From Botryllus schlosseri (Eukaryota): 64,000 bases of DNA. Each line of letters opens with the position of its first letter. Position 1 is the first letter of the stretch. Where the stretch lies: contig CM119373.1 in the NCBI GenBank assembly GCA_051294905.1, forward strand, positions 8,184,001-8,248,000, in the 5' to 3' direction. Position numbers and translations under genes: made by a program. Shown piece after piece: positions 14,130-32,823 of this stretch. The notes beneath the pieces were generated by a model. It did no database searches and was not told where the DNA came from. It was given only the letters and a program-made list of their open reading frames with translations.

Positions 14130-14267
14130 CTCGACCAGAAAAAAAATGAGAACAGTCCATTTGATTTACCGTTACCAGATTTGAATGTCTCAATGAGTTT
14201 ACCGTTGTGAATTAACGCGCCAAAAGTAGTTATTTAAACACCACTACGAGTGAGTGGGACATGAGAA

Positions 14268-14857: not shown

Positions 14858-15443
14858 TTAAAATTGCTGAGAATTTTGCATCCACCCAGCAGGGCGATGT
14901 CCGTATTGAGATGGCGGTGGCGGCGGTACACCAGCATTCATTCCATAATAGGCGTTTTGCGGCGCTGCATTCATGCCATTAGTCGCGAAGTTCGCTTGAG
15001 GATGATCTTTCGATTGGATTTGTCCCGATTCTGCGATGAAGCGAGATGTTTCCTGCAGAATGAACGATAGCGGACCACGGTCAGGATCCTGTACCACGTT
15101 ACCTATATAAAAGATATAGTTTATTAGTACAGAATTTCATTAGATATTTACAATCTAACATACTTGGAGAATAAATTGTTAATTCGTCTGCTGGGTTAAT
15201 CTGCTGGAAACATTCAACACCATCACGAGTATAGGTCGCGACGAGACCCCCTTTGTGTGTGAAGACGGCTTTGTATCGTTGAATGGCACCCGAAGTACGA
15301 TGTAAGCGCAATTGATGATGATCAATTACATCATCATTTATGCTTTCAAGTCGTAGCTTCGATATGTTATTAAAAACATATACCTCTTTTTTCATTGTTG
15401 GACCACCAACAATTCTACTATCACCTCTTATTGCGATGCTCAT
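14858..15443 (-). CDS. Hypothetical two-exon protein with Pro/Gln/Gly-rich tail (predicted intron 15103-15163)
   Basis: ORFs 15099-15443 and 14858-15097 join in frame (..IYSP-S-NVVQDPD..) across a 61-nt GTATGT...TTTTATATAG intron. Confidence 0.6.
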
Positions 15444-15521
15444 ATTGATTCTAAATTAATATAGAAAACACAATATAGTTATTATTCAGTGAAAACATGA
15501 ATCCCCACACGAGAAAATAGA

Positions 15522-15875
15522 TTAAGAATGAGTCTTGTCATATCTTTTACTTAGTAAAGCACAACGACTATTCACTTGTTCATGCTCAACCCATACATTA
15601 TCACAATGACAGAGATTTTCGAATAGTTTTCCACACATATAGCATTTGGCTAAATTTTCGAAGCCGAGATGAAAATAACCACATTCTGCTAATTGATAGG
15701 CACTACTGTTGAAATTTTCTTTGTAAGGTTCGAACGAACGTAATCTACGTTCAAAATTCATATTGAAAAACACAGCTTCGTTCTGCTTCGCATTTCGATT
15801 ACAAATTTCATAAACGATATCACCGACTTCATTCTTCATTGCCTGATGTGCACCTAACGGCTTAATAGACACCAT
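15522..15875 (-). CDS. Single-BIR inhibitor-of-apoptosis protein (117 aa)
   Basis: RLRSF...LAECGYF...CYMC...EH......C provides the BIR Zn ligands. No RING domain. Confidence 0.88.
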   Translation of the reverse strand: MVSIKPLGAHQAMKNEVGDIVYEICNRNAKQNEAVFFNMNFERRLRSFEPYKENFNSSAYQLAECGYFHLGFENLAKCYMCGKLFENLCHCDNVWVEHEQVNSRCALLSKRYDKTHS

Positions 15876-15939
15876 CTCGTTATATTGAAGAACTGAAATA
15901 TTTATAAGAATAGGAGCTTTTATAGCTGTGTAGAATGCG

Positions 15940-16195
15940 ATGCTGTATTCTGATTGGAAGATTTTTCAACTTTGAAATGCTTGGTGGTCGTTTGATTTAA
16001 ATTTACAACATTCCAAAGTTCGAATATGTTGTTGGTTAAAAAATACATTGAAAGTATTGGTCTAGAACACGATACTGTATTCTGATTGGTAGATTTCCAA
16101 CTTTGAAATGATTGGTCGTACTTTGATTTAAATTTATGACATTCCAGAGTTTGAATATGTTGTTGGTTAAAAAATTCGTTGAAAGTATTGGTATG
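15940..16195. promoter_or_regulatory. Duplicated ~130-bp module with CCAAT boxes between divergent Polinton genes
   Basis: Two diverged direct copies beginning (GC/AC)TGTATTCTGATTGG, between the IAP (-) and the 16553 ORF (+). The promoter role is inferred. Confidence 0.45.
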
Positions 16196-16552
16196 AATTG
16201 TAACGAACGTTACTTTCGCGCACTTCCATTTATTTGAGAGTTCAATCTGAGTTTACTTTGTTTTAAGAAATTTGATAGAGGTTCGTTTTACCGTCTACTA
16301 TTCATTGCTTTTCAAACACTCAATGCATTGTTTGCTCTACCAACAAAGCGAAAACGACGGTTGGGAATGTCTTTTGTTCGAACGGGCTGTTACTATCTAT
16401 CAACAATTTCACATCCTAACGGTTAATGTTTGTCCGTTAGTGAGCGAACATTTTTCTTATGTGATTCTGGCGCGAAGCATTTTCGTATAAGATTAGCCGA
16501 ATGTGAAATGAGTTATCACTAAATCTGAGCGAATCAGTGAAAAGTATTCGAG

Positions 16553-18157
16553 ATGTCTTTGCAAATTGAAGTAATTATGGATGATGATAGTCAGCAGTTG
16601 CCAAGCAACCAATCAACCCGAGAAAGCAGTGACCATGCATTGAGTGTAGAAATTCCGAATCATATGAAATGTGATCAAATGGATAAAGATGATGAGGAAC
16701 TCGTCGCTATGGATCGATACTTTAGACCCATAACGAAGATCCCATCTGCTAAAGAAGTTCTTCTGAAATCTTTGAGCGAAGAAGAATTTCGCGATCGCGT
16801 TGTCATACGTCAGATATGTCCCGCATTCAAAACTGATTCATCCCCATCAAAACAACAGGCTAATGACATCGAGCTAATTAGCAACGAGACCCAACTTAAG
16901 GATCAATTGATACCTCTGAGTCAATCAACACCAGTAGGTGAACAACCCGTTTATGACGTTGAGAAAGTGACTAGCGATCCGACCCCTTCTGATACTGTCA
17001 ATCATCAAGCTTCGGGACAAGCAGTAGGCAATCCCGACACGGAAATGGATTTGTCTCTTGGTGCGGAGGCGATTGCCGAAAGTAGCGAGCCGCTAGGTGA
17101 AATTTCTCGTGATAGCAATGAGATCGCGAAGCAAATCCTACTGCGTCGTATAGAGAAGAGCACATCGCAAGTTACAGAGCAACCTACTTTTAGCGAGCTT
17201 GTCGCCGATTCCACTCATATCTCAAGTGGTTTTTCCGACTCTAATGTTGGTTCTATACCAAAGCCGAATATACTATCATCGCCAGATTCGTCAATAAGGA
17301 TCTTTCCTAGATATTGGATCCAGCATGATCGTCCGGTCATTAACCCACCGCAATGGCATATAGGTGACACTACCAAAGCAGAACAGAAGTATGATGAGAA
17401 GAATCGCGTATTCATGCGTTGGCTAGTTGGATTTAGAGAGGCGACAGAAATACATGAGGGTTATCTCATGTATAGATATCTGGAAGAAAATATTGTTGAT
17501 ATACAATATGGCGGGTTGAAACGGAGTCTCAATTTTCTTCGCGCCGCTCTGATTGTAGCTGTCGGTGAAAGCTTGACTCATGAAAAATTACTTGCTCCAC
17601 ACTTCTTTCTGGAAGGGGATTGCCTTTCTGGAAAGGAAGTATTGCACGAAATGCTTTTCGGTAGTGAAACAGCAAATTATTTGCTGCCGAGTTTGGAAAA
17701 TTTGAATGCTTTCAAATATTATGATGCTACAAAATGTGTTTCTGTGTTTCCCAACTGCGGAACGCTTTTCTTTGAAAATACTGCTTTACAGGAAACAATT
17801 TTGACTATACATCGTACAGCAGTGCAATGTGAATACGGGATTATTAATCCATCTTGCTGCTTCATGCTTTGTGATAAACAAAATGGCTCTGACTTGATGA
17901 CTGTCAAACATCCTATATCATTCAAGGCTAAAACGGTCATTGTAAAATTTGGAAGGGGTATTTACGCACCTTCTCTGGCCAGTTTCAACAAACATGCCCG
18001 TCGTGATGTTCTGTTTGATTTAATAAAGAGAACTAAAACTTCAAATATTAAAGAAGTTAATGGCTGTGTTGAGAAGGATCCCTTGGCTCAAGTACTGTAT
18101 CTCAGAGCATCTGGCTTCAGAAGGAGAAAGGAAAAAGCTGATAATGATACTCTTTGA
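16553..18157 (+). CDS. 534-aa protein: low-complexity N-terminus plus degenerate SF3 (NS1-like) helicase-like domain
   Basis: Long intact ORF. HFFLEGDCLSGKE resembles Walker A with T/S replaced by E. The downstream NLNAFKYYDATKCVSVF is spaced like the NS1 N..F.F.D / Walker B region but lacks the acidic residues. Confidence 0.55.
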   Translation: MSLQIEVIMDDDSQQLPSNQSTRESSDHALSVEIPNHMKCDQMDKDDEELVAMDRYFRPITKIPSAKEVLLKSLSEEEFRDRVVIRQICPAFKTDSSPSKQQANDIELISNETQLKDQLIPLSQSTPVGEQPVYDVEKVTSDPTPSDTVNHQASGQAVGNPDTEMDLSLGAEAIAESSEPLGEISRDSNEIAKQILLRRIEKSTSQVTEQPTFSELVADSTHISSGFSDSNVGSIPKPNILSSPDSSIRIFPRYWIQHDRPVINPPQWHIGDTTKAEQKYDEKNRVFMRWLVGFREATEIHEGYLMYRYLEENIVDIQYGGLKRSLNFLRAALIVAVGESLTHEKLLAPHFFLEGDCLSGKEVLHEMLFGSETANYLLPSLENLNAFKYYDATKCVSVFPNCGTLFFENTALQETILTIHRTAVQCEYGIINPSCCFMLCDKQNGSDLMTVKHPISFKAKTVIVKFGRGIYAPSLASFNKHARRDVLFDLIKRTKTSNIKEVNGCVEKDPLAQVLYLRASGFRRRKEKADNDTL

Positions 18158-18316
18158 ATAATATGTTTTGCTTGTACGATTGTTATTTGCATGAACGATC
18201 GTTACCAATTCGAATTTTGTTTGCACCTTGACATTATGACTGAAAACTTAGCTGATGTATATATTATTTGCATGAATGATTGTCACTAATTCGAATTTTG
18301 TTTGCAGCTTAACATT

Positions 18317-18727
18317 ATGAATGATAACTTAGCCGATATAGCTGCATCCACCACTCAGAGAGACATGACACAAATTAGCGATATGTCGGCCTTCTATCAA
18401 AGTCTAATGGATCCACAGGAACCTTCACGAAAGCGTCCTCGTCAAGATATTGGTTCTTACTTCGAACACATGATGGATGATCATTTGAAAATGCAAGCGA
18501 TGTGGAACCGCCTCATTTCGATGGAAGGATTCGAACAAGACTGGACAAAAAATTTTCTTGTCATTGCAAAAAACGTGATCAAAGATATCGAAAAACTGTT
18601 GTGTGACGATAAAACAGACTCGAATATTCGTGATACTGAGATTGCTAGATTGGACAGAATTAAGTTCATGTTTCTGTACGGTCTAAACCAATCTAAATTG
18701 CGCTTGAGATATAATTTCGTTTTCTAG
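18317..18727 (+). CDS. Hypothetical protein (136 aa) with NLS-like RKRPR
   Basis: ATG-initiated ORF directly upstream of pPolB. No recognisable domain. Confidence 0.55.
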   Translation: MNDNLADIAASTTQRDMTQISDMSAFYQSLMDPQEPSRKRPRQDIGSYFEHMMDDHLKMQAMWNRLISMEGFEQDWTKNFLVIAKNVIKDIEKLLCDDKTDSNIRDTEIARLDRIKFMFLYGLNQSKLRLRYNFVF

Positions 18728-18905
18728 TAAGTGAAATTGTGCTTTGTTTTACAGATATGGAGTAAATATAGGTAATACTTTCAATACTTTGTTGACACAC
18801 GACTTTACGACTGGATACCGTATCATAAAGCCCAAACGGTAAGCAAAACTGTGATTGAAATAAGCTTCTCAATTTCTAATGTTCTATGTTTTACAGATAG
18901 CATAA

Positions 18906-21900
18906 ATGGCTCTACGCAGGCGATATTTGGATCGAGATTGGACCGTCGATGAATCCTTGGGCTTTGAAGATGCCGCCGTCGAAGTAATTGAAGAGCACTA
19001 CGATTCGATCATTGACTCAACGTGGACGTCGAGAAATCGCGTGCGACATATAGTCAATATTCGGATGATTGAACGAGACCCCGCAGACATTCACGCGCGT
19101 ATCGCAAGTATATACCCGCAACGATTTAGACAATTTAAAATAAATTATGGCTTTGGGTATCTACTATATAATCGCGAGTCTGAGCGATATACGTATTTTC
19201 ACCCCCAATCATCGCAAGCTGTCCTCGATGTCCCAAGAACTATCATATCGCGTGAAGATTTTGATTCGTTTAGAAATGCAATTGATTTATCGGCCGGTTA
19301 CGATTATGCGAATCGAGTCAGACCGGATACAAAATTTGTTTGTTCGGAGGTGCTACACATTACTTTATTCCTGTATGAAATGGAAAGACCTTTACTTAGC
19401 GGGGGCGTTGTCTCAGAAGAAATGGAAAGATTATCCAAATGTAGATATATCAGTGCTTTTATTCGTAATCGTGAAGGTGTACCATATACAGATAATCTCT
19501 GTCTGTTTCGATGCGTCTCATTTAGATTAATTAAAAAACGTGACGAAAGTCATGTTTCTCAATTGACTACGCAATTTGAAAATCGTTACGGAATTTCAGT
19601 TGCAAATGGTATATCCTTCGACCAACTATCGAAAGTGGAAGCGTGTTTTAACGTTAGAATATTGCTTTACGAGAAACGTGAACAAACCACGGTCTTGCGT
19701 CGTACTTCCAATGCGTCTGGACTCACAATTCATATTCACATGCTCGAAAATCACTGTTCTTTAATTTTGAATATAGAGAATTATACGTCTACTTTTATGT
19801 GTGATTCGTGTAAAACATTCTTTACCTTGAAAAGTAGTTTAAAACGACATATTAAAAATCATTGTAATTCTGAGAAAAGGTATCGCTACGGTTCTGGTGT
19901 TTATCGTCCTAAAGCGACGGTGTTTGAAGATTTGGAAAATGAAGGTATATTTGTTAGTAAAGAAAAACGTTTTTACAAATTCAGAATTTGCTTTGACTTT
20001 GAGAGTCTCTTAGTAAAAGAAAATCTCAAGCCCGATACAGCCAAAGTAAAATTTACCAGTAAACATGTCCCGCTCTCGGTCTCACTGTGTGATAATGTCA
20101 CGAACGAAACAACTACATTTATTTCCAATGGCAACCCGCGTGATCTAATTAAAGAAATGGTCGATAAGCTTCATGAAATTCAAGAAATTGCGTCTTCGCA
20201 AATGCGTGCTATATATGACACCGAGTTGACCGCTCTTCGCGACTTGATTGAAGAACGTAAAGTGATTGATCCGATTAAAACGCGATCGTACCTGGAGTTG
20301 TTGTATCATCGCTTTGAAACGTGGTTAGATCAAATACCCGTAATCGGATTCAACTCGGCTCGCTACGATTTAAATCTGTGTAAAAAATATTTGATTGCTC
20401 TTTTGCGAGAGGAGAGCGGCTTTTTTGTATTGAAGCGAAACAGCAGTTACCTCACTATCTCCACAAATAAATTGAAATTTCTAGATATATCTCTATTCCT
20501 CGCTCCGGGATATAGCCTGGATGCGTATTTGAAAGTGTACGGTGATGGAGTAAACAATAAATTTTTCTTTCCATACGAATATATGACGCATATTGATAAA
20601 TTGAAAGAAACATCGCTACCGCCACACGATAGCTTTTATAGTAGTCTTCGCGGGCATAATATTACAGCTGAACAATACCAAGAATGCGTCGATACTTGGA
20701 AGCGTCTCGATATGAAAACAATGAGGGATTTTTTAAAATACTACAATGAATGTGATGTGGTCGGCTTTCTCGTCGCGGTAAATAACCACTTCGACTTTTA
20801 TAAAAAACTGGGGATTGACATGTTCAAAAATCACGTCAGCTTACCGAGTATAGCTAATCGACTTATGTTCGATGAAAGGTGGGAAATCGCTTTATTCAAT
20901 AAAGCCAATGCCGATCTCCATCACACTGTAACTAATAACTTAATCGGTGGATTGGCACAAATTACAAACCGGTATGCAATGGCAGACGAGACCAAAATTC
21001 GCATTTTGAAGTATGGAGACGCAGCCAAAGACGTGAAATCTATAGTAGGGTATGACAGCAACGCATTATACTTGCACGCCATTGATCTCAATATGCCAAC
21101 TGGATATGTCACCCGTTGGCTGTATGATGAAGTGAAACAGAAATTTCATAGAAAACAGACTTATCCGTCCATGATCGAACTCGAGTGGTTAACTTATCAA
21201 AGCATTGTTCGCGGTATTCCGATTCGTCACGCTTGGAACGGTCCGCAAGTGAAACTGGGAGCCCGTAGAATTAGCGTAGATGGATACTCAGCGGAGCGGA
21301 AGTTAATATTCAACATGGACGGATGTTGGTGGCACTCGTGTCCTTGTATATCTAATAATCAAAATATTAATCATAATCGACGCATTAAAACCGAAGAAAC
21401 CACCGCTTATTTTGAACGCCTAGGATATCAGGTCATTCGAGTGCGCGAATGTGAATGGAAAGCAATGAAGCGCGATCCAGACATTGCGCGCCTCGTTGCA
21501 CATTTACAAAGGAATGTGACAAAAGAATATTTACTCTCGCAAGAACAAATACTCGATCGAGTCGTTAACAATCGCTTTTTCGGTGCGATAGAATGCGACG
21601 CGCATTGCCCAGATCATTTGAAATCTAAGTTTGAAGAGTTACCGCCTTTCTTTAAGCACATCGAAATTAATGAATGTGATATCGGTCCGCATATGGCTCA
21701 ATACGCAAGGGAAAACAAAGTCAAGTTTCCAAAAAAAGCGCTCGCGTCCAGTTATTTCATCGAAAAGCAATTGGTTACTACCGACTTGTTGAGTTGGTAC
21801 TTGCGTCACGGAATGGTGGTCACACGTGTTTATCAATGTTTGGAATATGAACCTAAAAGACTATTTCGCAACTTCGTAGATCGCGTAACTACGCTACGGC

Positions 21901-22772
21901 GTAAAGGTGACGTCATTCCTAGAGACCATGCACTTGAAATGCAGGCATTAACCTTCAAGAATCTTGGAAATAGTGCTTTCGGAACCACTATACAAAATCC
22001 AGCCAAATATAAAAATCACAAATATGTGACTTGCGATGAAGTTCAAGCGCTCATCAAAAAACCGAATTTTATCGACGCTGATGAAATTGATTCGGACTTA
22101 ATTGAAGTAACCTCACGGCCCGATACGACTCAACTTGATCAACCCGTCATCGTAGGCTTCTTCATATTTAATCACAGTAAGCAACGGATGTTGTCGTTCA
22201 TGTATGACTTCCTCCACGTCTACATAAACGATTGTGATCAATTTCATCTTGAACTTGACACCGACAGCTGTTATTTAGCGATATCAGCTGATTCTATCTA
22301 CTCATTGATCATACCTTCAAAGCGTAAAGAGTTCTTTGAAGTTCATGATCAGTGGTTGGTTCAGCAGGCGTGCGTTAAGCATAAAACAGACTTCGAGAGG
22401 GACCCAGTCGCATTCAAAATCGATGAACCGTGCTGTGTCGCTGCTCATAATTACTCTAAGCGAACACCGGGTCTGTTTAAAGTAGAATGGAGTGGACGGG
22501 GGTTTGTTGGCCTCAATTCAAAAACCTACTATTGCTCGGGTGATACAGATAAATATTCATCGAAAGGTTTGAGTAAAACGGCCCGCAAAACTTTCAAAGA
22601 TTTCAAAGGTGTATTGCAAAACCGTTCTATATCAGGAGGGTATAACTCCGGATTCCGTTGCTTTCAGGGAGATATATATACATATCATCAATATCGTTCC
22701 GCTCTATCATACGGTTACTATAAAAGAATTGTATTGAGTGATGGGATTCATACTGTACCGCTTGCTTTGTAA
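18906..22772 (+). CDS. polB: Protein-primed DNA polymerase B with N-terminal vOTU-like region, C2H2 finger and inserted nuclease-like domain
   Basis: Exonuclease motifs CFDFES, GFNSARYD and YNECDV. Polymerase motifs YDSNALY, KNLGNSAFG and LDTDS. DNLCLFRC..NHCSLI (OTU-like dyad), CDSC..LKRH..H finger, and VDGY...MDGCWWHSC insert. Confidence 0.97.
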   Translation: MALRRRYLDRDWTVDESLGFEDAAVEVIEEHYDSIIDSTWTSRNRVRHIVNIRMIERDPADIHARIASIYPQRFRQFKINYGFGYLLYNRESERYTYFHPQSSQAVLDVPRTIISREDFDSFRNAIDLSAGYDYANRVRPDTKFVCSEVLHITLFLYEMERPLLSGGVVSEEMERLSKCRYISAFIRNREGVPYTDNLCLFRCVSFRLIKKRDESHVSQLTTQFENRYGISVANGISFDQLSKVEACFNVRILLYEKREQTTVLRRTSNASGLTIHIHMLENHCSLILNIENYTSTFMCDSCKTFFTLKSSLKRHIKNHCNSEKRYRYGSGVYRPKATVFEDLENEGIFVSKEKRFYKFRICFDFESLLVKENLKPDTAKVKFTSKHVPLSVSLCDNVTNETTTFISNGNPRDLIKEMVDKLHEIQEIASSQMRAIYDTELTALRDLIEERKVIDPIKTRSYLELLYHRFETWLDQIPVIGFNSARYDLNLCKKYLIALLREESGFFVLKRNSSYLTISTNKLKFLDISLFLAPGYSLDAYLKVYGDGVNNKFFFPYEYMTHIDKLKETSLPPHDSFYSSLRGHNITAEQYQECVDTWKRLDMKTMRDFLKYYNECDVVGFLVAVNNHFDFYKKLGIDMFKNHVSLPSIANRLMFDERWEIALFNKANADLHHTVTNNLIGGLAQITNRYAMADETKIRILKYGDAAKDVKSIVGYDSNALYLHAIDLNMPTGYVTRWLYDEVKQKFHRKQTYPSMIELEWLTYQSIVRGIPIRHAWNGPQVKLGARRISVDGYSAERKLIFNMDGCWWHSCPCISNNQNINHNRRIKTEETTAYFERLGYQVIRVRECEWKAMKRDPDIARLVAHLQRNVTKEYLLSQEQILDRVVNNRFFGAIECDAHCPDHLKSKFEELPPFFKHIEINECDIGPHMAQYARENKVKFPKKALASSYFIEKQLVTTDLLSWYLRHGMVVTRVYQCLEYEPKRLFRNFVDRVTTLRRKGDVIPRDHALEMQALTFKNLGNSAFGTTIQNPAKYKNHKYVTCDEVQALIKKPNFIDADEIDSDLIEVTSRPDTTQLDQPVIVGFFIFNHSKQRMLSFMYDFLHVYINDCDQFHLELDTDSCYLAISADSIYSLIIPSKRKEFFEVHDQWLVQQACVKHKTDFERDPVAFKIDEPCCVAAHNYSKRTPGLFKVEWSGRGFVGLNSKTYYCSGDTDKYSSKGLSKTARKTFKDFKGVLQNRSISGGYNSGFRCFQGDIYTYHQYRSALSYGYYKRIVLSDGIHTVPLAL

Positions 22773-22798
22773 TAAAATGTTGTCTGTTTTGTAATAAA

Positions 22799-23419
22799 AT
22801 GGAGCGTGCACGTGTCTTAAATTCTCCGTTCAGGATGATCATAGCTGGACCTTCGAGCTGCGGTAAGACATGTTTTGCCTATCGCCTTGTGCAAAATGCC
22901 AAGAAGATCATTGCGCCTTATCCAAGGAAGATTATTTGGCTGTACAATAATTATCAGCCGTTATACGATAAAATGAAGGGTGTGAAATTCCACCAAGGTC
23001 TAGGCGAGTTAGAACATTTACAGCAGGGTGGTAATGGACACACTCTGATAATACTAGACGACATGATGACGGAAGCACAACAAGCGAGGGACCTATTCAT
23101 ACGTCATTCCCATCATAATAATGTCTCAGTAATCCTATTAGTCCAGAACATATTTCACCGAGGTGGTGGTTTTCGTGACGTCACTCTCAGCGCTAGCTAT
23201 ATTGTGGTGTTTAAAAATCCACGTGACGTTTCACAAATACGTTACCTTTCACGGCAAATGTTCCCGGACAATCCTACTATGCTTACAGAAGCATACAAAA
23301 GAGCAACTCGCGAACCTTATTCATATATTGCCATTGATTTAACCCAAGAGACACCGGAAAAGTATCGACTTCGTACCAACATATTTCCGGACGAACGCAT
23401 GACTGTGTATTTGGAATAA
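22799..23419 (+). CDS. FtsK/A32-like DNA packaging ATPase
   Basis: Walker A GPSSCGKT, Walker B LIILDD, and RHSHH and VVFKNPRD motifs typical of Polinton ATPases. Confidence 0.95.
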   Translation: MERARVLNSPFRMIIAGPSSCGKTCFAYRLVQNAKKIIAPYPRKIIWLYNNYQPLYDKMKGVKFHQGLGELEHLQQGGNGHTLIILDDMMTEAQQARDLFIRHSHHNNVSVILLVQNIFHRGGGFRDVTLSASYIVVFKNPRDVSQIRYLSRQMFPDNPTMLTEAYKRATREPYSYIAIDLTQETPEKYRLRTNIFPDERMTVYLE

Positions 23420-23454
23420 ATAGCGCGCTGCTCGAACGATAATCATCATTCGTG

Positions 23455-23864
23455 ATGGCTAAGGACGCGCGAAGACTCATTTTGAAAAAACGTTTAAAAG
23501 ATCATCTTACCAAATTGAAAACTTTACGGAGGGCTAAAAACCCCGAACGTATTCAGTTATTGAAGCATAAGGAATTTGTCGCTAGTGTGTGCGAGTGTCT
23601 TCGAAACCTGGTGGCGGGCGATGTACCTATTTCTAACGCAAGAAAATCTAAATTGAAAAAACACAAAGCCAGCATACGGAAGGTCCTCTGTTGCAAACTC
23701 AAAAAGGCAGGCGCAAAGTTTTGCAAAGAGGTGGCTTTCTTTCGGGTAAATACGTGTAACTTTGATTCAATACTTTATCTAACGTTATTCCGTTCCTAGC
23801 CATTTTGAGTGCCGCTATTCCGATACTGGGAAGCCTCTTGGGCGGACTGACGAGAAATGCGTGA
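23455..23864 (+). pseudogene. Basic virion protein with C-terminal amphipathic QRGGFL helix (pVI/cupiennin-like); frameshift near 23701-23705 and predicted intron 23746-23799
   Basis: N-terminal ORF VCECLRNLVAGDVPI. A shifted frame gives RRKVLQRGGFLS, which splices (GTAAAT...TTCCTAG, 54 nt) to AILSAAIPILGSLLGGLTRNA*. Confidence 0.7.
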
Positions 23865-24321
23865 GCTCTATTTTCCACCGCTACTAACAAAAGATGGATA
23901 CGAAAGGAAATTTGACAAACATATTGCCAAAATCAGAGACTCGGATTTGACTCGCGTGCAAAAACTAGCGCTTTACAAACACGGTATCAATGTCTTGAGA
24001 AACCTAAGAAAGAATGACGCGACGATAAAAGCGCTCGCAAACGCTTCGTCACTTGACGATAAAAACGCGTCGCCGCCCGTCATTAAAGCAGACGCAGCGC
24101 GCGCGCCACCATCTGATGACACAAACGCGACGCCGGGGCCCCCGCACGCGTTAAATTGGAGCGTTACTAAACAGGAGGGAGATACTCCAAAGAAGAAAAA
24201 ACCCAAGAAAAAAGCAAAGAAAAAGGTCGACCTCAAACCTCCGCTTAACTGGAAAGAACTCGATACTCCACGTCAACAAAAGCCCAATCAACGCTACTTT
24301 GGGAAGCTATGGACAAACTAG
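23857..24321 (+). CDS. Lys-rich hypothetical Polinton protein (154 aa)
   Basis: ATG ORF overlapping both neighbours, with a poly-Lys tract. Position between the ATPase block and integrase. Confidence 0.7.
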   Translation: MRELYFPPLLTKDGYERKFDKHIAKIRDSDLTRVQKLALYKHGINVLRNLRKNDATIKALANASSLDDKNASPPVIKADAARAPPSDDTNATPGPPHALNWSVTKQEGDTPKKKKPKKKAKKKVDLKPPLNWKELDTPRQQKPNQRYFGKLWTN

Positions 24322-25313
24322 ACTACTTCGATCCCAAAAAACCCAATTCTTATAGGGGTGCTTACCTACAGAAAGACAGCGAGTGGTTGAAGGGACAAGA
24401 TAGTTATACCTATCACTTTCCCATTCGAAAAAGATTTAAACGTCGTCAAGTTGTTGTGTCAGGGATCGGAGCGCAGTTTCAAAGCGATTTAATCGACGTA
24501 CAGTCTATTTCAAAATACAATCGTGGGTTTAGATATATCGTTCTTATTATTGATGTTTTCTCCAAGTATGTGTGGATGATTCCGATTAAAAATAAATCGA
24601 GTGACAACATGATATCTGCTTTCAAAAAAGTTTTCAAAGAGAGCCTTCCATTAGTGCTACAGACAGACAGAGGTACAGAATACTCGAGTCGAGCTTTTCA
24701 GAATTTTCTCAGAAAAAACAAGGTGCGGTACTTTTACACGAAAAGCGAATTGAAATCTTCGATTGCGGAAAGGGCTATCCGTAGTTTCCGTCAAATCTTC
24801 TACCGCTATTTCACGAAAAATAACACCAGCAATTATATCGATGTGCTAGATGATATGGTCTATTCGTACAATCACACCAGACACCGCTCGTTAGGGATCC
24901 CTCCTAGTGAAGTTAATAGACATAATCAAGAAAGCATTTGGCAAAAAATGTATGGATTTCGCGACTCCAAACTACCCACTTTAGCGGTCGGGACCCCTGT
25001 ACGCATCTCGAAAATTCGCAATCTGTTTGAGAAGTCTAGTCGACCCAACTGGCAACCCGAGATATTTTACATTGCCAAAGCCATGAAAGGAGATCCGCCA
25101 ACGTATCGCTTACGTGATTACAATAACGAAATAATTGACGGACAATTTTACAGACAAGAAATTCAACCCGTTACTGAACCGCAAAAATGGCAAGTCGAAA
25201 AGATTATAAAGAGGCGACGGCGTGGTAAACGCAGTCAGTTTTTAGTGAAGTGGTTGAATTATGGACCGGAATTCAATACCTGGGTCGATCAAAAAGATAT
25301 CGTCGAACCGTAA
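24309..25313 (+). CDS. Retroviral-like (rve) integrase with C-terminal chromodomain
   Basis: QSDLID, LQTDRGTEY and SIAERAIRS give the DDE triad. WQVEKIIKRR..FLVKWLNYGPEFNTWV is a chromodomain. Confidence 0.96.
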   Translation: MDKLDYFDPKKPNSYRGAYLQKDSEWLKGQDSYTYHFPIRKRFKRRQVVVSGIGAQFQSDLIDVQSISKYNRGFRYIVLIIDVFSKYVWMIPIKNKSSDNMISAFKKVFKESLPLVLQTDRGTEYSSRAFQNFLRKNKVRYFYTKSELKSSIAERAIRSFRQIFYRYFTKNNTSNYIDVLDDMVYSYNHTRHRSLGIPPSEVNRHNQESIWQKMYGFRDSKLPTLAVGTPVRISKIRNLFEKSSRPNWQPEIFYIAKAMKGDPPTYRLRDYNNEIIDGQFYRQEIQPVTEPQKWQVEKIIKRRRRGKRSQFLVKWLNYGPEFNTWVDQKDIVEP

Positions 25314-25473
25314 CTTTTATCAATTCATTGCTCAAGTTATAATTATACTGCTCATCGTGAGTTTTTCGCTGTATAATTTGAGTGTCGTGCAAGACAACAA
25401 AGAGCTTTGGGTGTCGCTGTTATCATCGTGTGTGGGATATATGTTACCGGCTCCAAAGATACCCAAACTATGA
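25261..25473 (+). CDS. Small two-TM membrane protein (true start uncertain)
   Basis: QVIIILLIVSFSLYNL...ELWVSLLSSCVGYMLPAP has two hydrophobic segments. The stop overlaps the penton ATG. Confidence 0.7.
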   Translation: MDRNSIPGSIKKISSNRNFYQFIAQVIIILLIVSFSLYNLSVVQDNKELWVSLLSSCVGYMLPAPKIPKL

Positions 25474-26300
25474 GTTATATTACGTTATTTTCCAATGCCT
25501 CCATGGACAGGTTTCCACAAAATACAGCTGCGGTTTACACCAACGAACTAGACACCCCCAGAAATGTAGAAAGAAGCGAAGTCGCGTTGACTGAGATTGG
25601 CTTCCCAACCGATTTTAACGAACGGATCCCAATCACAAATAGCTACTACGGTTTCGACATTATGGGTCCCAGTGAAGTCACAAGAAGATTGAAGTTCAAA
25701 ATTGGTGAATATGAATCTGTATATGACATGTTTAAATCGTTGGAGAGCATTAATCCCGATGTGAAAGTCAAGTGTTTTCCTGAAAGTGATAGCCTGACGG
25801 TTTCGATTCCACACAAAAACATTGCAGCTAGTGCAAGACCGGGAGAGGATACGCGATATCGAATCGACACCAGAGAGTACGATTATACTGGGACACTTGA
25901 GCATCTAGAATTGGCGGTAGTTACCCTTACTCTCCTACGTTTCATATTACCGAAGAATAGAGCAGACCTATCCGCATACTTTTTTACTGACAAGACAATA
26001 CATCTCAATTTTGATGTACGACCCTTGTCGAAAATCGATTTCGTATACGTTCATTGCGACATCATTGAACCACAAGAGTCTAGCGGTTCACTACAGCGTT
26101 TATTACGAGTTGTAAAAGTCGAAGGAGATAAGAAGGTGTTTTCAAAATATTACGTAAAACCTTTCTTTCTTCCGCTAAGTATAAATAGATTGGAACGGGT
26201 AAAAATTTCCTTGCTGGATCACAAAGGGGGTGAAATTCCGTTTCGAAGCGCTCCATCGAGCGCTGTACTTCAATTCCGAAAGCGCGGTATCGCACTATGA
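25470..26300 (+). CDS. Minor capsid (penton-like) protein 1
   Basis: YITLFSNASMDRFPQN...EVALTEI at the N-terminus and VYVHCDIIEPQ..LLRVV..FLPL near the C-terminus. Confidence 0.88.
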   Translation: MSYITLFSNASMDRFPQNTAAVYTNELDTPRNVERSEVALTEIGFPTDFNERIPITNSYYGFDIMGPSEVTRRLKFKIGEYESVYDMFKSLESINPDVKVKCFPESDSLTVSIPHKNIAASARPGEDTRYRIDTREYDYTGTLEHLELAVVTLTLLRFILPKNRADLSAYFFTDKTIHLNFDVRPLSKIDFVYVHCDIIEPQESSGSLQRLLRVVKVEGDKKVFSKYYVKPFFLPLSINRLERVKISLLDHKGGEIPFRSAPSSAVLQFRKRGIAL

Positions 26301-27046
26301 AATACATTCACATTAGCAGTTTGGAATCAGATTTTGTTCTCGAGCTAGCACGACCGATTGCTGGAAAATACGAACTGGGGCTAGCGGAGTTCTCGATTCG
26401 CAACGAGTTCCAACCTACTTTACCTGCTTTCGACGCTCTGTTATGGCAATTTCAGGATGAGAAAACATCGCCTCTGATTCAAGTGGGAAGTACCAATCAT
26501 TATTATTACCCCAAGGGTAATTATTATGACTTCAAAAGTTTGATTGATAGAATCAATCGCACGCAGGACCAAGTATATATTAACCAGCTAGGAAGTTCTA
26601 CTGGTATGTTAGTCATTCCACCTTACAAATCGGGTGCGTTTCCTAATTTCCTGAAGAATCCAACCAGAGTCAGAAATCCGGTTTTCGTGTATGGAAAGCT
26701 TAGGAAGAAAAAGCTGCTAGGAGGGAATTATTTAACTTCAGAGATCACTCTGAGGGATTCCATTACGCCTATCACCAATTTATTAATTTATACCGATCTC
26801 ATTCGACCGCAATCAGTCGGCGACACGAAAGCTCCGCTATTACGAAACATCCCCATTACGAGTAGTGTCAATGAATATCAACATCATATATTCGAAAAAA
26901 TATACTTTTTCCCTATGATTACGGAATACGCTCGTCGAATTCAGATTAGTATCAAAGACGATAAAGGTACGGGTATAAATCTGAAGGGGTCCATGATTGA
27001 TATCACACTTGCTTTACGTCATCATGAGAGCACATTACTGTTGTGA
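26297..27046 (+). CDS. Minor capsid (penton-like) protein 2
   Basis: YELGLAEFS and LLIYTDLIRPQSVGDTKAPLLRNIP..IQISIKD are the same motif set as the preceding ORF. Confidence 0.88.
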   Translation: MKYIHISSLESDFVLELARPIAGKYELGLAEFSIRNEFQPTLPAFDALLWQFQDEKTSPLIQVGSTNHYYYPKGNYYDFKSLIDRINRTQDQVYINQLGSSTGMLVIPPYKSGAFPNFLKNPTRVRNPVFVYGKLRKKKLLGGNYLTSEITLRDSITPITNLLIYTDLIRPQSVGDTKAPLLRNIPITSSVNEYQHHIFEKIYFFPMITEYARRIQISIKDDKGTGINLKGSMIDITLALRHHESTLLL

Positions 27047-27392
27047 TCGCGATGCCTTTCAACAATACTATCGTGTGCAAAGTGGTAATGGCATAAACTA
27101 TTTTCGAGGACGAGTGCAAAGAGGACACGGTTTAGGAAATCTCTTTCGTAGTTTGGGACGAAGTGTTGTACCATTGATATCAAAAGGGGCGAAAGCTCTC
27201 GGCAAACAACTACTCCATACAGGAGCAGAAGTAGCTTCTGACGTATTGCGTGGGCAAAACGTCGGTGAAAGCTTCAAAATAAGAGGTAAACAAGCAGCTA
27301 GCAAAGCTCTTGACAACTTCCTAGGCAAGAGAAAGGCACCTAGAAAAAAGACCACGAAACGGAAAAAGCGCCGACGGGACATTTTCGATTAA
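27018..27392 (+). CDS. Basic core/membrane-active virion protein (QxGxG motifs)
   Basis: YYCCDRDAFQQYYRVQSGNG..QRGHGLGNLFRSLGR..., Lys/Arg-rich tail ending RRRDIFD. Usual position before the MCP. Confidence 0.8.
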   Translation, partial: VIMRAHYCCDRDAFQQYYRVQSGNGINYFRGRVQRGHGLGNLFRSLGRSVVPLISKGAKALGKQLLHTGAEVASDVLRGQNVGESFKIRGKQAASKALDNFLGKRKAPRKKTTKRKKRRRDIFD

Positions 27393-27442
27393 ATAGGACT
27401 CTCCCTACTTTATTTTTTCATTAGCTAGCAGACTCGCGAAAG

Positions 27443-28721
27443 ATGACGGAGCTAATTCACGCGAAATCTGCCGAAGGCGTACATCCTAGCTTGGATCTTT
27501 TTCAACTCCCACCTACCCAAACAAGCGTGGAGAAGAAACGGATCATTAAGATTCCACCTGTGTCGGACAACGCAAGCGTAATTATTTACCGCTATGAAGG
27601 ATGTGACGATTTTATTGATTTAAGCGAATCCTATTTTTTTATTTCGCTTGAAACTATTGAAAGGCGATGCGAATCTAGCTGCCACGGACAGCATCGGAGT
27701 TGTGAATAACATTCTTGATTCTCTAATTTCTCAACTTCACATCAAAGTCGGGAACCATACCCTGAAACAAGACGTGAAGCTACAATGTTATTCGGCCTAC
27801 TTACACTATCTGTTCACACCTCACGACGTGCAAGAGACAACACTTCTTACACAAGGATGGTTCAAGGACACAGAGAAGCAATTGGATGATTCGGCCCCAG
27901 GCGACGGTGCGGCTAACAAAGGTCATAAGGCGAGAAGTTTGCCTTATGCCGGGAGCAAAGTCGTCGAAATTCGCGGTAAAATACATCATGGGTTGTGTTT
28001 GCAAGACCGCTATATTTTGGACGAGGTTCCGTTAGAGTTCGAATTGACATTGAATCCGAAAAGTTTCTTTCTGTTTGGAGCCGCTACCAGCAATTTCAAA
28101 ATCATCAAAAAAGAATTGCACCTATGTGGAGTGCGGGTAACCGAAGATGTAAAATCTGCCTTGATGGTAGACGCACCGGCTCGGTATCCCTTTATGGACA
28201 TGAAGCTGCTGACTCGAACTTTTGCGGCTAACACCACTCAAATCGATATTGGTAATCTGTATTCGGGAACCCTGCCGACACGTTTGATTATAGCCATGGT
28301 GAAAACTGAGGCATTCCAAGGAGCACTCGATAAGAACCCATATAATTTTATTCATAATAAAATGAATCGGGTTGAATTGAAAGTAAATGGTTTCCTTATG
28401 CCGGAGGGTGGCTACGAACTTGATTTTGAAAACAATCATTATTCCGAGGCCTACCTAAATCTCATTCAATCTATGGGTGCCATCGAACGACAAAAAGGCT
28501 TGATTTCCCCTTCCGAGTTCGCAAATGGATACACGCTTCTAGCATATAATTTGCGAGGTGACGATTTAGATGACTGCTTCGAGCTGCAGAAAAGTGGAAC
28601 GATCAGTCTTCGAATCACCTTTCCTGCGGCAGGTGTTGAGAGCGAAACGACACTGCTGTGCTTTATGGAATTTCAAAAAATACTGGAAATAAGCCAAGCT
28701 CGCACGGTGACCGTGATATGA
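27443..28721 (+). pseudogene. Double-jelly-roll major capsid protein, one frameshift near 27650
   Basis: LDLFQLPPTQTSVE..IDLSESY in ORF 27443-27709 continues as KLLKGD..NNILDSLISQ..HHGLCLQDRYIL..LPTRLIIAMV..NPYNF in ORF 27648-28721. Confidence 0.92.
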
Positions 28722-29179
28722 ACGGACAAGAAATAGATGAAATATTGTATAGTTACCATGCTACGAAACAACACTATCTAGGGAATTTCCCTATTGATCA
28801 ACTCCCTCAGCGCCCAAAACCTCCTTATTCAATTGTGATCAATTATGATGAAAGTCACAAGGAAGGTAGTCACTGGGTTTGCATATATGCTGATCAATAT
28901 GAAACCCATTTTCACGATAGTCTGGGTATCACTCCATTCAGGATTGAGATTGCGAGTTTCCTTGATCCCGAAAATTATACTAGCTCAATAAAACCATTAC
29001 AGCATGAAAGGTCAGACGCTTGTGGAGCTCATGCAATTGCATATATCGTCAAACGCTCTACTGGTATGAGCACACTACAGTATTTGGATCACTTCGGTGA
29101 TGATCGAAAAGAGAACGACGATATCGTAGTGGACTTCGTTAGAATCTTGAAATGGGAGCAACTAGTTTCACCATCATAG
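28718..29179 (+). CDS. Adenain-like cysteine maturation protease
   Basis: GSHWVCIY, HDSLG and LQHERSDACG supply the His/Asp/Gln/Cys residues. ATG overlaps the MCP stop. Confidence 0.93.
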   Translation: MNGQEIDEILYSYHATKQHYLGNFPIDQLPQRPKPPYSIVINYDESHKEGSHWVCIYADQYETHFHDSLGITPFRIEIASFLDPENYTSSIKPLQHERSDACGAHAIAYIVKRSTGMSTLQYLDHFGDDRKENDDIVVDFVRILKWEQLVSPS

Positions 29180-29469
29180 AATACTTTGGAGATGATGAGA
29201 AGGCCTACATGAAAGTCCAAGGAAAAATTATTGTCATGAATGCAAATCGTATTCATAGAATTTCTTTCGAGCCGTTTCACATACGCATTTACCCGCATGA
29301 TAACGAAGTTACAATTTTCCGCGGGTCTGATTGGATACCAGTGCGTTTTCCTAAAAATTGTATGTATATAGATGTGTTGTCGAAGCATAGAATTATTCGT
29401 CGTAACCGCGGTGAACTTGTCGTTTTTCGTAAACTAAAATTATGGGAATTTTTGAGAAATCGCTTTTAA
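29152..29469 (+). CDS. Hypothetical protein
   Basis: ATG ORF overlapping the protease end, followed immediately by AATAAA. Confidence 0.55.
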   Translation: MGATSFTIIEYFGDDEKAYMKVQGKIIVMNANRIHRISFEPFHIRIYPHDNEVTIFRGSDWIPVRFPKNCMYIDVLSKHRIIRRNRGELVVFRKLKLWEFLRNRF

Positions 29470-29533
29470 TAAATTCGTGTGTATTCATCGGAGTATATAA
29501 GTGGTTATTGCTCGGGATCTAGTCAGTGTCATC

Positions 29534-30274
29534 ATGAATGCGCTTATAGTATCGATGTGTTATCGCGGAAAGCCGCACCATGTCGAAAATGAAGGAACGT
29601 TACAAGACATTCAGATTATGACAGATATCTTAGTACAGAAATTCAAATTCAAGACTGAAGATATCAAAGTGTTGCGTGAAGAGCAAGCCACTCTTGGAAA
29701 TTTTTCCAGAGAGCTTCAAACGATGGCCGATAGTAGCGCCAAGATAAACTTCATATATTTCGTCGGTCACGGCTTTTCATGTCCAAATAACACAAAAGAA
29801 AATGATCCTGAAGCTCGCGATTCCGGATTTGTATTTTATGATAGGCATCTACTCGATGATGATATGTGTGAGCTATTAAAAAGCTTTCGTAAAGATACAA
29901 AAAACCTACTCATGTTTGCGCAGTGTTATAGTGGTAACTCTGCCGATTTGAAATTTCATTTACGAGAAGACGCTGCTTCGCAAGCACTCAAGCGCAAACG
30001 AGACGTAAAATCCAAAACTGTTCTCATAAGTGCAGTTAGTGACGATCAAATCAGTTGGTGTTTTGAAGACGGTAGTGCTTTTGCAAAGAATTTCAGAACC
30101 GTCATACGTGAACACGACGAAATCAAATTCTTCGATCTTATGTGTAAATTGCGACAACTAGATAAGAGACAAAAGTGTTCGATATCATCAAGCTTCAAAT
30201 TGGATGAACACGATCATCTCATTCGAAAAAGAAGTTTCAGTTGGATAAAATCTCAATGGAAGAAATCGAAATAA
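29534..30274 (+). CDS. Metacaspase-like cysteine protease (peptidase C14, no prodomain; 246 aa)
   Basis: Colinear with type I metacaspase motifs: ALIVSMCYRG, GTLQD, FIYFVGHG (His), LLDDDM, MFAQCYSG (Cys), LISAVSDDQIS and QKCSISSS. Confidence 0.85.
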   Translation: MNALIVSMCYRGKPHHVENEGTLQDIQIMTDILVQKFKFKTEDIKVLREEQATLGNFSRELQTMADSSAKINFIYFVGHGFSCPNNTKENDPEARDSGFVFYDRHLLDDDMCELLKSFRKDTKNLLMFAQCYSGNSADLKFHLREDAASQALKRKRDVKSKTVLISAVSDDQISWCFEDGSAFAKNFRTVIREHDEIKFFDLMCKLRQLDKRQKCSISSSFKLDEHDHLIRKRSFSWIKSQWKKSK

Positions 30275-30359
30275 TAACTATCGTTGCAACCGCGCTGTTA
30301 TTTCTGGAATTCTTATTATATACGCTATTTTGCTGTGGAGAAGAATGTGAACGTAAATC

Positions 30360-30701
30360 ATGACTATGGCTCGCATTTGTATTGGTCCCCTACGCTTGAG
30401 TAGTAATGGAGATCGTAGGTATTATGAAAAAACGATTGTATTACCGAAAGTGAGATCTATCACTATTCCTTTCTCATGTGAAATAATGTATCGTACCAAT
30501 AAGATCGTAGTGAAGAAACTGCATGTTCCTCACTACGGTAAGATTGAATCTCCGACAATCACTGTCTGCAAAGACAAACATTACTGTTTACCGCGTACCT
30601 GTCCTATTCTTATAGAATTTAAAGGGAATGCGAGCGTTGTAAAAAATATAATCGTATTCGAAGCGTTACACAACGCGCGATTTTATGATGCTTGTTATTA
30701 G
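30360..30701 (+). CDS. Hypothetical beta-rich protein (113 aa)
   Basis: ATG ORF followed by AATAAA at ~30716. No recognisable domain. Confidence 0.55.
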   Translation: MTMARICIGPLRLSSNGDRRYYEKTIVLPKVRSITIPFSCEIMYRTNKIVVKKLHVPHYGKIESPTITVCKDKHYCLPRTCPILIEFKGNASVVKNIIVFEALHNARFYDACY

Positions 30702-30785
30702 TTTGATATGTCTGTAATAAAATCGCAAAACAACTACGGCTCCTCATTCGTGTTCTAGTCAGATACAGCATCAATAGAAAAGTCG

Positions 30786-30856
30786 TGGAGACTACGGGAA
30801 TTGAACCCGTATCTTCTATTTGCAAGACAGATACTCTACCATTGAGCTAAGTCCCC
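30786..30856 (-). tRNA. tRNA-Ala (UGC)
   Basis: Full cloverleaf: GGGGACT/AGTCTCC acceptor with G3:U70, D arm GCTC/GAGT, anticodon loop CT-TGC-AA, T arm ACGGG-TTCAATT-CCCGT, discriminator A, and TTTT 4 nt downstream. Confidence 0.9.
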
Positions 30857-30965
30857 ATTCAGACGAATAACAACGCAACCAGACGTTGATTTTTATTATT
30901 TATTACAAGAACAATACGGAATGTATAATGCAATTCCACGCTACTCGCGGTGGATTAAAACAACA

Positions 30966-31445
30966 CTATTTTTCTTGCTGGGTGACTTGCGTATCTTCCA
31001 TTGCATGTCTACGGGTATATTGAGTAGCTAGTTGGAAATAACGTTCCTTATTTTTTAAATACATTTCCGCACTCTCTTGATCCATCGGATCATAAGGGTT
31101 TGGTGAAGCGAGCAATGAACGTATTGATATCAGTAGAGTGGACGTTGTCATCGCTGGTGACCATTCCTTCTGTAAAATATCGACACATATGGTACCTTTA
31201 CAGCTTACGTTAGGATGGAATATCCGTGTTTCAAATCGCATTTTAGGAGGCTTGAATGGATACTCGGTAGAATATTCGATTGATAATCTGAACACACCAC
31301 CTTCGTAGGGCGTTCCGTTTGGTCCTTGGATCGTTGCCCACCAACTATACATATTCTTTTCATCGAATGGTCCTGCTCGGATCCCTTCGTAAGCATTCTG
31401 CTTAAATTTTGCTTGTTCATATATCAAACGCTTCAAAGCACGCAT
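30966..31445 (-). CDS. E2 ubiquitin-conjugating enzyme (UBE2D/E-like, intronless, 159 aa)
   Basis: GPNGTPYEGGVF, YPFKPPK, IFHPNV..GTICVDILQKEWSPA. The HPN motif and catalytic Cys are intact. Confidence 0.95.
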   Translation of the reverse strand: MRALKRLIYEQAKFKQNAYEGIRAGPFDEKNMYSWWATIQGPNGTPYEGGVFRLSIEYSTEYPFKPPKMRFETRIFHPNVSCKGTICVDILQKEWSPAMTTSTLLISIRSLLASPNPYDPMDQESAEMYLKNKERYFQLATQYTRRHAMEDTQVTQQEK

Positions 31446-31609
31446 GTCTATCGAATGATAGTATTCGAACTGTCGCACTTGCTTTCAAATAAATTATAAT
31501 TCAATCTAATTATACATGTAAATAGAAATAGGTTACAGAATAATGAATGATATGATTAATGTATGAAATGACATGCGTAGCGCATTTCAAATCTACAACA
31601 AAAAATATA

Positions 31610-31936
31610 TTAATGTATGAGATGAGATGCGTCGCTCATTTCTAATCTGTAACAATTTTTCATGAATAGGCTGTTTAATTCCACGGCGGTTCCTTGTTTG
31701 ATAGTAATACACTTTCCATTTATGCGGACATCTTCCTCATGAATCTTCATTGATTTTTTTTCGTTGTCTTCGTCACGTATGATCACCCACGTATATCCTT
31801 CACGGCGTTTTATCATGAACTGCTGCTCAAATTTTATCGTTGCTACACCCGTTACTATTATACTCTTTGAAGTTTGCTCCATTGTAATATTTGTTGGAGA
31901 TTCGAATTTGACATCGTTAATCACTATTCTTCCCAT
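31610..31936 (-). CDS. Hypothetical protein (108 aa)
   Basis: ATG ORF next to the right TIR. No recognisable domain. Confidence 0.55.
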   Translation of the reverse strand: MGRIVINDVKFESPTNITMEQTSKSIIVTGVATIKFEQQFMIKRREGYTWVIIRDEDNEKKSMKIHEEDVRINGKCITIKQGTAVELNSLFMKNCYRLEMSDASHLIH

Positions 31937-32019
31937 CGTCGCTCAATTTCGTATTGAATGGCTTAGCATCAAATTTGTGACTTAAATAGTCCCCTAAACT
32001 TCTTCTACAATCATTGTCA

Positions 32020-32823
32020 ATACAATGATGATCACACCATCGCGGAATAAACATATATATGATTGCAAACTTGTCACGTGATCAAAGCTATGTATGGTGC
32101 AATATCGCTAGGTTATTACCCATTGTGCAATAACGGACACACAACTCTTTCGCGCGCTTTTCTCTGTTTGATTTGAAATTCAAAAGTGGTCACGTGATTG
32201 GAGTGGGTCTAAGTACCCACTTTGACGCGTTAATCAAAACAACAGCAACGAACGCTAGGCGAGATGGGCAGAAGACTGCAAATCCTGAACAATGGAGGGT
32301 GTAACACCAGAACGAGCGAAAATATACTTCGAACATTTGGACAAGCACTGGGAGAGGAACTGGGATGGAGCTTGCGATGGGATGGCTGTATAGGAATAAT
32401 TGGACTGTATATAGGAATAAGAATGATTTGTAGTGATGCTAAAAAAATATATAATTACAAATTTGGTACGTGATCAAAGCTGTGTATGGTGTAATATCAC
32501 TAGCTTTGGACTTGTCTATGGTATTAACCATTGCACAATACCGTAACGTTCGCTAGCACACACCCCATTATGCTGTCACGGTTCGCTCTCCTAAGCCACA
32601 CCCATTAACACCCATTATACAATCAGCTGACACAATCATTGTCAATACAATGACGGTCACGCCCGTTATTGACATATATTGTCACCCATTGTCCCTATTG
32701 AAGCACTATCGATATAACTCTTTCGCGCGCTTTTCTCTGTTTGATTTGAAATTCAAAAGTAGTCACGTGATCAAATGCTGCGATTTGATTGGTCCGCATG
32801 AGAACGTGCTGTTATATACTACT
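32020..32823 (-). repeat. Polinton right TIR with rearranged subrepeats and an extra ~270-bp segment (~32200-32470)
   Basis: Reverse complement of 2913-3345 modules, with an unrelated block between the duplicated modules. Confidence 0.85.

Follow-up and report, generated by a model that had tools for sequence, protein, structure and literature searches.

A tRNA-Ala(UGC) gene with a non-host anticodon arm, kept by three Polinton lineages of Botryllus schlosseri

Why should a Polinton of an animal carry a tRNA gene, and does such a gene work as a tRNA? The question is raised by a short interval in the genome of Botryllus schlosseri, lying in a stretch of 64,000 nucleotides (assembly GCA_051294905.1, contig CM119373.1, positions 8,184,001 to 8,248,000 of the forward strand) that we analysed at its full length and call the window. 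The original prediction, drawn from the letters of the window, had described a complete tRNA-Ala(UGC) cloverleaf with the G3:U70 pair, internal A and B boxes and a downstream T4 run. The only tRNA that ARAGORN called in the 64-kb window is a tRNA-Ala(tgc) on the minus strand, a strand the prediction had not given, at 30785-30856, and the Rfam model RF00005 covers 30856-30786 from end to end (model positions 1-71/71) with 73.4 bits (E 3.5e-14, cut-off 29), so the cloverleaf stands and the covariance score proposed as a check is high. Two host tRNA-Ala(UGC) genes scored alike with the same model reached 67.7 and 68.3 bits, below the Polinton gene, and ARAGORN found no tRNA in 100 block-shuffles of the element (13801-32823). 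The G3-U70 pair and A73 are read directly in the sequence. The boxes, assigned on what we take to be the Pol III consensus, and the T run were likewise located (Table 1), and with them the gene has the layout of a Pol III type 2 gene. The window holds one other exact B-box match, at 4110-4120 within extra DNA of the left arm (about 3320-13800). Single-strand folding of the tRNA gave a z of -2.85 for the window copy and about -1 for other copies, and carries little information.

The immediate surroundings also agree with what had been predicted. The tRNA lies between two convergent viral ORFs, each with a polyadenylation-type hexamer on the side toward the tRNA, and it is richer in AT than a host tRNA-Ala(UGC) gene, with a GC content of 0.45 versus 0.64. 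No SINE body or tail and no copies outside Polintons were found with a 261-bp query, whose 26 genome matches are all Polinton tRNAs. A tRNA-derived SINE was thereby ruled out, since every match lies inside a Polinton and the similarity between families does not go past the ends of the tRNA.

Table 1. Features of the tRNA gene and of the Polinton that carries it, in window coordinates.
Feature	Position	Strand	Remarks
Polinton copy (family A)	2913..32823	+	AGTAGT ends, ~270-bp terminal inverted repeats
Death-domain gene	13866..14129	+	domain hit
BIR (inhibitor of apoptosis) domain gene	15522..15875	-	domain hit
Protein-primed family B DNA polymerase	18906..22772	+	Atlas look-alikes PF03175, score 0.97; no direct Pfam hit
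A32-like packaging ATPase	22799..23419	+	PF04665, E 2.5e-10
rve integrase with chromodomain	24309..25313	+	PF00665
Double jelly-roll major capsid gene	27443..28721	+	PF21738 weak, E 0.005; split into two ORFs in window copy
153-aa ORF	28718..29179	+	conserved; no family hit
Caspase-domain (Peptidase_C14) gene	29534..30274	+	domain hit
113-aa ORF, no known family	30360..30701	+	convergent on tRNA; orthologue in family B
T4 run, likely Pol III terminator	30778..30781	-	5 nt past discriminator
tRNA-Ala(UGC) gene	30786..30856	-	71 nt, 7-nt D loop, 4-nt variable loop, CCA not encoded
B box	30797..30807	-	1 of 2 exact matches in window, 0.13 expected
Anticodon arm (positions 26-43)	30815..30832	-	anticodon UGC 30824-30822, C32 and A38
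A box (internal Pol III promoter)	30839..30849	-	consensus match
Ubiquitin-conjugating enzyme (E2) gene	30966..31445	-	transcribed, partly spliced in public RNA runs

The element around the tRNA is a Polinton, as had been claimed, which is established by its inverted repeats, integrase, ATPase and polymerase and by a 6-bp target duplication (GACCTT, at 2907-2912 and 32824-32829); a sibling copy has its own 6-bp target duplication. With its terminal inverted repeats ending in AGT, protein-primed polymerase, rve integrase, A32 ATPase and double jelly-roll capsid it resembles animal Polinton/Maverick elements of the adintovirus type, from which it differs by the addition of tRNA genes and of cell-death and ubiquitin genes. 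This last cargo varies across the Polinton clade, comprising Death, BIR/IAP, caspase-domain and E2 genes and, in families B and C, Bcl-2 (window 13866-15875 and 29534-31445; L014:1934-2452; L060:8944-9603; L026:273-1466). The 153-aa ORF occupies what we take to be the place of the Polinton cysteine protease, a label given by position. The window copy was inserted in a 21-bp minisatellite of another inverted-repeat element (1.3-kb inverted repeats, window 1336-35483), and about 10.5 kb of its left arm (about 3320-13800), which has no long ORFs, is missing from two siblings. The right half of the window (35465-59787) contains remnants of a Pao/BEL retrotransposon and of THAP/P-type, hAT, YqaJ and DDE_Tnp_4 transposase genes.

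Several genes of the element are transcribed. In public RNA runs a few accessory genes are covered and the core genes only sparsely; the E2 gene received 126 reads in one run and 10 in another, and these reads stop just short of the tRNA. The open E2 frame contains a canonically bordered intron of 131 nt (window 31170-31300) that nine reads skip, and the viral E2 thus occurs both spliced and unspliced. Reads of at least three Polinton genes start with a shared short leader that is absent from the element (window 15456, 18306 and 31507), which looks like spliced-leader trans-splicing; the leader seems to resemble that of stolidobranch ascidians. The absence of reads on the tRNA itself in four runs, one of which gave no reads at all, carries no weight, as these are mRNA-type libraries, which lose tRNA.

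The distribution of the tRNA was followed through a search of the genome with the ATPase, in which 150 of 227 candidates were scored and sorted into families by ATPase identity (our own count of rows): 14 at 91-100% (A), 12 at 72-73% (B), 45 at 63-67%, made up of 44 copies of family C and one that we name C', and 79 at 48-50% (D). The tRNA-Ala region is present in 13 of the 14 family-A copies, the fourteenth being rearranged downstream of the caspase gene, and a related tRNA-Ala(UGC) occurs in all 12 family-B copies and in the single C' copy. The sibling copies, proposed as a check, thus carry the gene, and tRNA-Ala is a cargo of the family and no accident. Genome-wide, the tRNA-Ala(UGC) pattern has 37 matches, 26 of viral and 11 of host type. 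Other tRNAs travel with these elements: family B has tRNA-Pro(UGG) in 11 of 12 copies, at the site where family A has tRNA-Ala, and tRNA-Leu(UAA) in the left arm, beside 8 of 12 copies; the C' copy has its own tRNA-Pro beside tRNA-Ala(UGC), and one family-A copy (L192) has a B-type tRNA-Pro next to the Death gene. At the normal ARAGORN threshold (with Rfam run on some arms) no tRNA was found in nine right and seven left arms of family C or in five right and five left arms of family D, which bears out the view that a tRNA is not standard Polinton cargo, these being the larger groups; faint calls made in family C under relaxed ARAGORN thresholds were dismissed, as Rfam gave them no support. In an integrase tree A, B, C and C' stand together against D, and the tRNA-bearing lineages do not form one side of a branch.

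Some rearranged relatives of these elements were also seen. Several contigs bear tRNA-Leu(UAA) genes about 89% like that of family B in inverted pairs spaced 8-19 kb, the DNA around them being poor in genes and related to the left arms of Polintons (L255-L275; 347 candidates, 40 of them scored), and in some of these copies the anticodon has drifted. In one family-B copy (L063) the right-arm genes are repeated in inverted orientation at the left end, and a perfect inverted repeat of 6.2 kb comes after one family-C copy (L061-L062).

Comparison with the host tRNAs showed that the Polinton gene is not simply a borrowed one. The window copy is 63-73% identical to three host types of tRNA-Ala(UGC), in an overall range of 63-74%, and this identity, together with an anticodon arm (positions 26-43) that matches at only 6-7 of 18 positions, excludes a host copy; the identity with a host tRNA or SINE that might have undone the original prediction is therefore not there. 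The body of the molecule (acceptor, D and T arms) matches host tRNA-Ala at 27-33 of 39 positions, with a D loop of 7 nt in both. In family A, 9 of 11 positions of the anticodon stem differ from host but 4 of 24 positions of the acceptor and T stems together (p 0.0004), and the same clustering is found in families B and C' (p 0.003), while three ordinary bacterial tRNA-Ala submitted to the same test against host gave p values of 0.15-0.47. The arm matches these three bacterial tRNA-Ala at 12-14 of 18 positions (14-15 of 18 for family B). To weigh a chimera of host tRNA-Ala and tRNA-Thr, it was also compared with host tRNA-Thr(AGU), which agrees at 11-12 of 18 positions (12 for the window copy) versus 12-15 for the bacterial molecules; a pattern search for host tRNA-Thr(UGU/CGU) gave no gene called Thr by ARAGORN, and the comparison is one with Thr(AGU). 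The anticodon arm thus looks more like that of bacterial tRNA-Ala or host tRNA-Thr than like that of host tRNA-Ala. Within the loop, the U32-U38 pair of host tRNA-Ala is C32-A38 in the Polinton gene, a pair called strong and fidelity-lowering in the accessible part of a study on bacteria (PMC4238358). The tRNA-Pro and tRNA-Leu of the families are host-like (about 88-90%, with 7 differences in 72 positions and 9-10 in 83), and position 32 and/or 38 of the loop departs from the host counterpart in each of the three carried tRNAs.

The closest whole-sequence look-alikes of the gene are phage-type tRNA-Ala (86-90%), which were picked from huge sets with patterns made from the query and are thus no proof of origin. 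Tight patterns had no match in viral contigs, none in prokaryote genomes and one in metagenomes, and looser ones had 3 and 30 matches. In a tree of 15 tRNAs, from which the plasmid comparator L241 was omitted because it is a tRNA-Arg, the Polinton genes group with prokaryotic ones with weak support (74/54), and the alternative of grouping them with host tRNA-Ala could not be rejected (p-AU 0.4). As judged from these comparisons, the tRNA-Ala may be of prokaryotic origin, of protist-viral origin or a host body whose arm was exchanged. The tRNA-Pro genes have peculiarities of their own: those of family B and C' do not have C73, which is listed among the eukaryotic proline determinants in the accessible text of PMC9976931, and the C' tRNA-Pro(UGG) (L026:1670-1741) has G4-U69 and A73. 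Features of this type are tied to alanine mischarging in mammals in the same text (PMC9976931), and in C' they may be mere decay.

Conservation of the gene speaks for a function. Between lineages the tRNA-Ala is 82-87% identical (A/B 87%, A/C' 83%, B/C' 85%), versus 0.42, 0.32 and 0.34 for four-fold codon sites of the core genes in the same pairs, and its flanks are unalignable between families, the similarity ending at the tRNA boundaries. Identity of 82-87% against 32-42% at four-fold sites indicates that the tRNA is under selection. The eight distinct tRNA-Ala variants are invariant for G3-U70, A73 and UGC, and 94.6% of their cells are paired; three pairs show a two-sided change, with a modest shuffle control (17 of 500 shuffles had equally high covariation), and position 6-67 is unpaired in four of the eight. 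Two-sided changes are also present in the family-B tRNA-Pro, at pairs 2-71 and 3-70. Within family A the signal is mild, with 8 differences in the tRNA versus 49 in the spacers (naive p 0.03) among 11 non-independent copies, the truncated L004 and the window copy being left out. On these alignments the pattern suggests that selection has acted over a long time on the structure of a tRNA and not on its promoter boxes alone. A gene kept by three diverged lineages and distinct from the host version is likely to be a working viral tRNA.

Whether the tRNA answers a need for codons was studied by comparing codon usage. Host tRNA-Ala genes counted by pattern, which gives lower bounds, are 26 for AGC, 14 for CGC and 11 for UGC, to which the Polintons add 26 for UGC. 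The GCA share of alanine codons is 0.28 in family A, 0.29 in B and 0.23 in C' versus 0.17 in a host sample of 15,105 codons in 71 exon segments of kinase, HSP70 and actin genes (A versus host, p 0.0001), and in excess over host GCA ranks third among the 14 A-ending codons in A and first in B. All three Polinton anticodons (UGC, UGG and UAA) begin with U and read A-ending codons. A-ending codons are elevated in other codon boxes too, however, TTA is high in every Polinton family, and CCA usage compared across families had no link with the presence of tRNA-Pro. When seven core genes are compared across families, the highest GCA share belongs to D2, a family lacking tRNAs (0.29 versus 0.26, 0.28 and 0.24), and the sister contrast gives 0.24 in C' versus 0.17 in C (p 0.16). 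The data are consistent with codon supply, and the codon link is weak. Of the earlier suggestion that the tRNA may support translation, what stood is that its identity elements are conserved; the codon test lent it little.

How could such a gene serve the element? The Polinton tRNA-Ala probably works as a tRNA. It would be transcribed by host RNA polymerase III, given its promoter motifs, and its transcript would be processed and receive its CCA from the host. It would then be charged with alanine by the host enzyme through G3-U70, which is the eukaryotic alanine determinant in the accessible text of PMC9976931. Used on ribosomes, the charged tRNA would allow extra GCA decoding while the Polinton multiplies, and its C32-A38 arm might, by analogy with bacteria, give tighter ribosome binding and possibly a wider reading of the GCN box. 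The more specific reading, a charged viral tRNA that tops up the scarcest alanine isoacceptor of the host for AT-rich viral genes, is the one we favour, at about even odds. It gains from the retention of the gene in 13 of 14 A copies, all 12 B copies and the one C' copy, from the lowest host gene count of UGC among the patterned tRNA-Ala isoacceptors and from the transcription of several Polinton genes, and it loses from groups C (44 ATPase hits) and D (79), which among the 150 scored multiply without detectable tRNAs, and from the tRNA-Leu in gene-poor inverted pairs with little to translate. The same working tRNA could instead be a counter-defence, its rewritten anticodon arm escaping a host nuclease, or a modification-dependent cut, that depletes host tRNA-Ala; we regard this as unlikely, though worth keeping in mind. 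The concentration of host differences in the anticodon stem and the changes at position 32 and/or 38 in all three carried tRNAs would fit, as would the other genes of the element (BIR, Death, caspase-domain and E2, with Bcl-2 in B and C). On the other hand, the tRNA-Pro and tRNA-Leu have only 1-2 of their 7-10 changes at the loop or stem edge, and a foreign origin accounts for the odd arm without selection for escape. We know of no nuclease acting on tRNA-Ala in this host. Precedents exist in the accessible parts of three reports: phage tRNAs (PMC10264068), tRNA-cutting effectors in animals (PMC13191261) and the same idea put forward for polinton-like viruses (PLVs) of protists (PMC12220804). 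Extended to the small tRNA set of the whole Polinton lineage, with a eukaryotic Pol III body joined to a foreign arm (bacterial-type or threonine-derived) that host tRNA-cutting defence would not see, the idea is just as doubtful.

The remaining explanations do without decoding. A gene bound by TFIIIC and Pol III could act at the DNA level, as a chromatin barrier or transcription boundary shielding the arms of the element from silencing, with the tRNA as a by-product. According to the accessible part of PMC2040200, a tRNA-Ala gene has been shown to act as a barrier in fission yeast, and in the window the tRNA sits between two convergent polyadenylation signals, with E2 reads stopping just before it; moreover, family B has tRNA-Pro at the same place, so that the site and not the isotype is shared, and derivatives poor in genes still hold on to tRNA-Leu. 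What a barrier requires is the A and B boxes; the acceptor stem, G3-U70 and the anticodon are nevertheless conserved between lineages with saturated silent sites, and the positions of the tRNAs vary between lineages, which leaves this role somewhat less probable than an escape from cutting. Passive carriage, in which a tRNA acquired once is swapped between families by recombination and has no present function, would explain the B-type tRNA-Pro found at another site in L192, which indicates that tRNAs move between families, as well as the mild within-family conservation and the success of tRNA-less families. It is nonetheless improbable in view of the 82-87% identity across lineages with near-saturated neutral sites and unalignable flanks, of the paired changes in the stems and of an Rfam score exceeding that of host genes. 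tRNA-like RNAs made by Pol III serve other large DNA viruses as regulatory or decoy RNAs, and a Pol III unit yielding a tRNA fragment or a VA-RNA-like product is the least probable explanation, as the terminator 5 nt past the discriminator leaves no trailer hairpin and the cloverleaf and identity elements are canonical.

Viral tRNAs have been described in related systems outside animals. The accessible part of a survey of protist PLVs reports 558 predicted tRNAs among 8300 genomes, gives tRNA-Ala in 55 of its table rows, from dinoflagellates, an oomycete, Trichomonas and Paulinella and never from an animal, and proposes both codon compensation and counter-depletion (PMC12220804). Like the present case, that one concerns predicted tRNA genes in integrated Polinton relatives of 15-40 kb; unlike it, the hosts are protists and the predictions come, in that part, without a selection test, whereas here the host is an animal, three lineages are involved and the host isoacceptor is compared. 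Virophages carry Met, Gln, Leu, Pro, Cys, Phe and ochre anticodons in the accessible text of PMC6905037 and, together with non-animal MELD viruses (PMC8502044, in part), are similar as small integrase-bearing viruses of the PRD1-adenovirus lineage with one or a few tRNAs unlike database tRNAs. The accessible part of the adintovirus paper mentions tRNA once, in a figure legend on non-animal elements (PMC8502044). Nuclease-evading phage tRNAs, as far as the accessible text of PMC10264068 goes, share the anticodon-loop differences from host counterparts and differ in having bacterial hosts and known nucleases and cut sites, where here there is a sequence pattern. We found no report of tRNA cargo in animal Polintons in a literature whose subscription papers, Repbase notes and preprint supplements largely fell outside our coverage, and a non-host anticodon arm was not found noted before in it. 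By their sequences, these genes would extend the predicted tRNAs of protist viruses to an animal Polinton clade. Protein searches beyond this genome gave six capsid and seven E2 relatives. A scan of a virus collection with the integrase alone returned no loci, and scans with capsid and integrase alignments returned one locus each, L293 without a tRNA and L294 with tRNA-Ile(UAU). The latter (L294:5651-5722) lies in a Polinton-like region on a giant-virus bin contig, and its anticodon again starts with U for an A-ending codon.

It is a standing question whether animal Polintons are transposons or real viruses. A selected tRNA is sensible mainly with high-copy protein synthesis or with a shut-off of translation, and so supports a viral life cycle. 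The viral and host tRNA-Ala differ at about 20 of 71 positions and can thus be distinguished by tRNA-seq. Should the counter-defence be true, these genes would be an animal counterpart of nuclease-proof phage tRNAs, pointing to true infections fought by invertebrate translation shut-off. Why viruses carry tRNAs, for codon supply or for nuclease escape, becomes a testable question in an animal, with the tRNA-less sister families serving as controls in the same genome.
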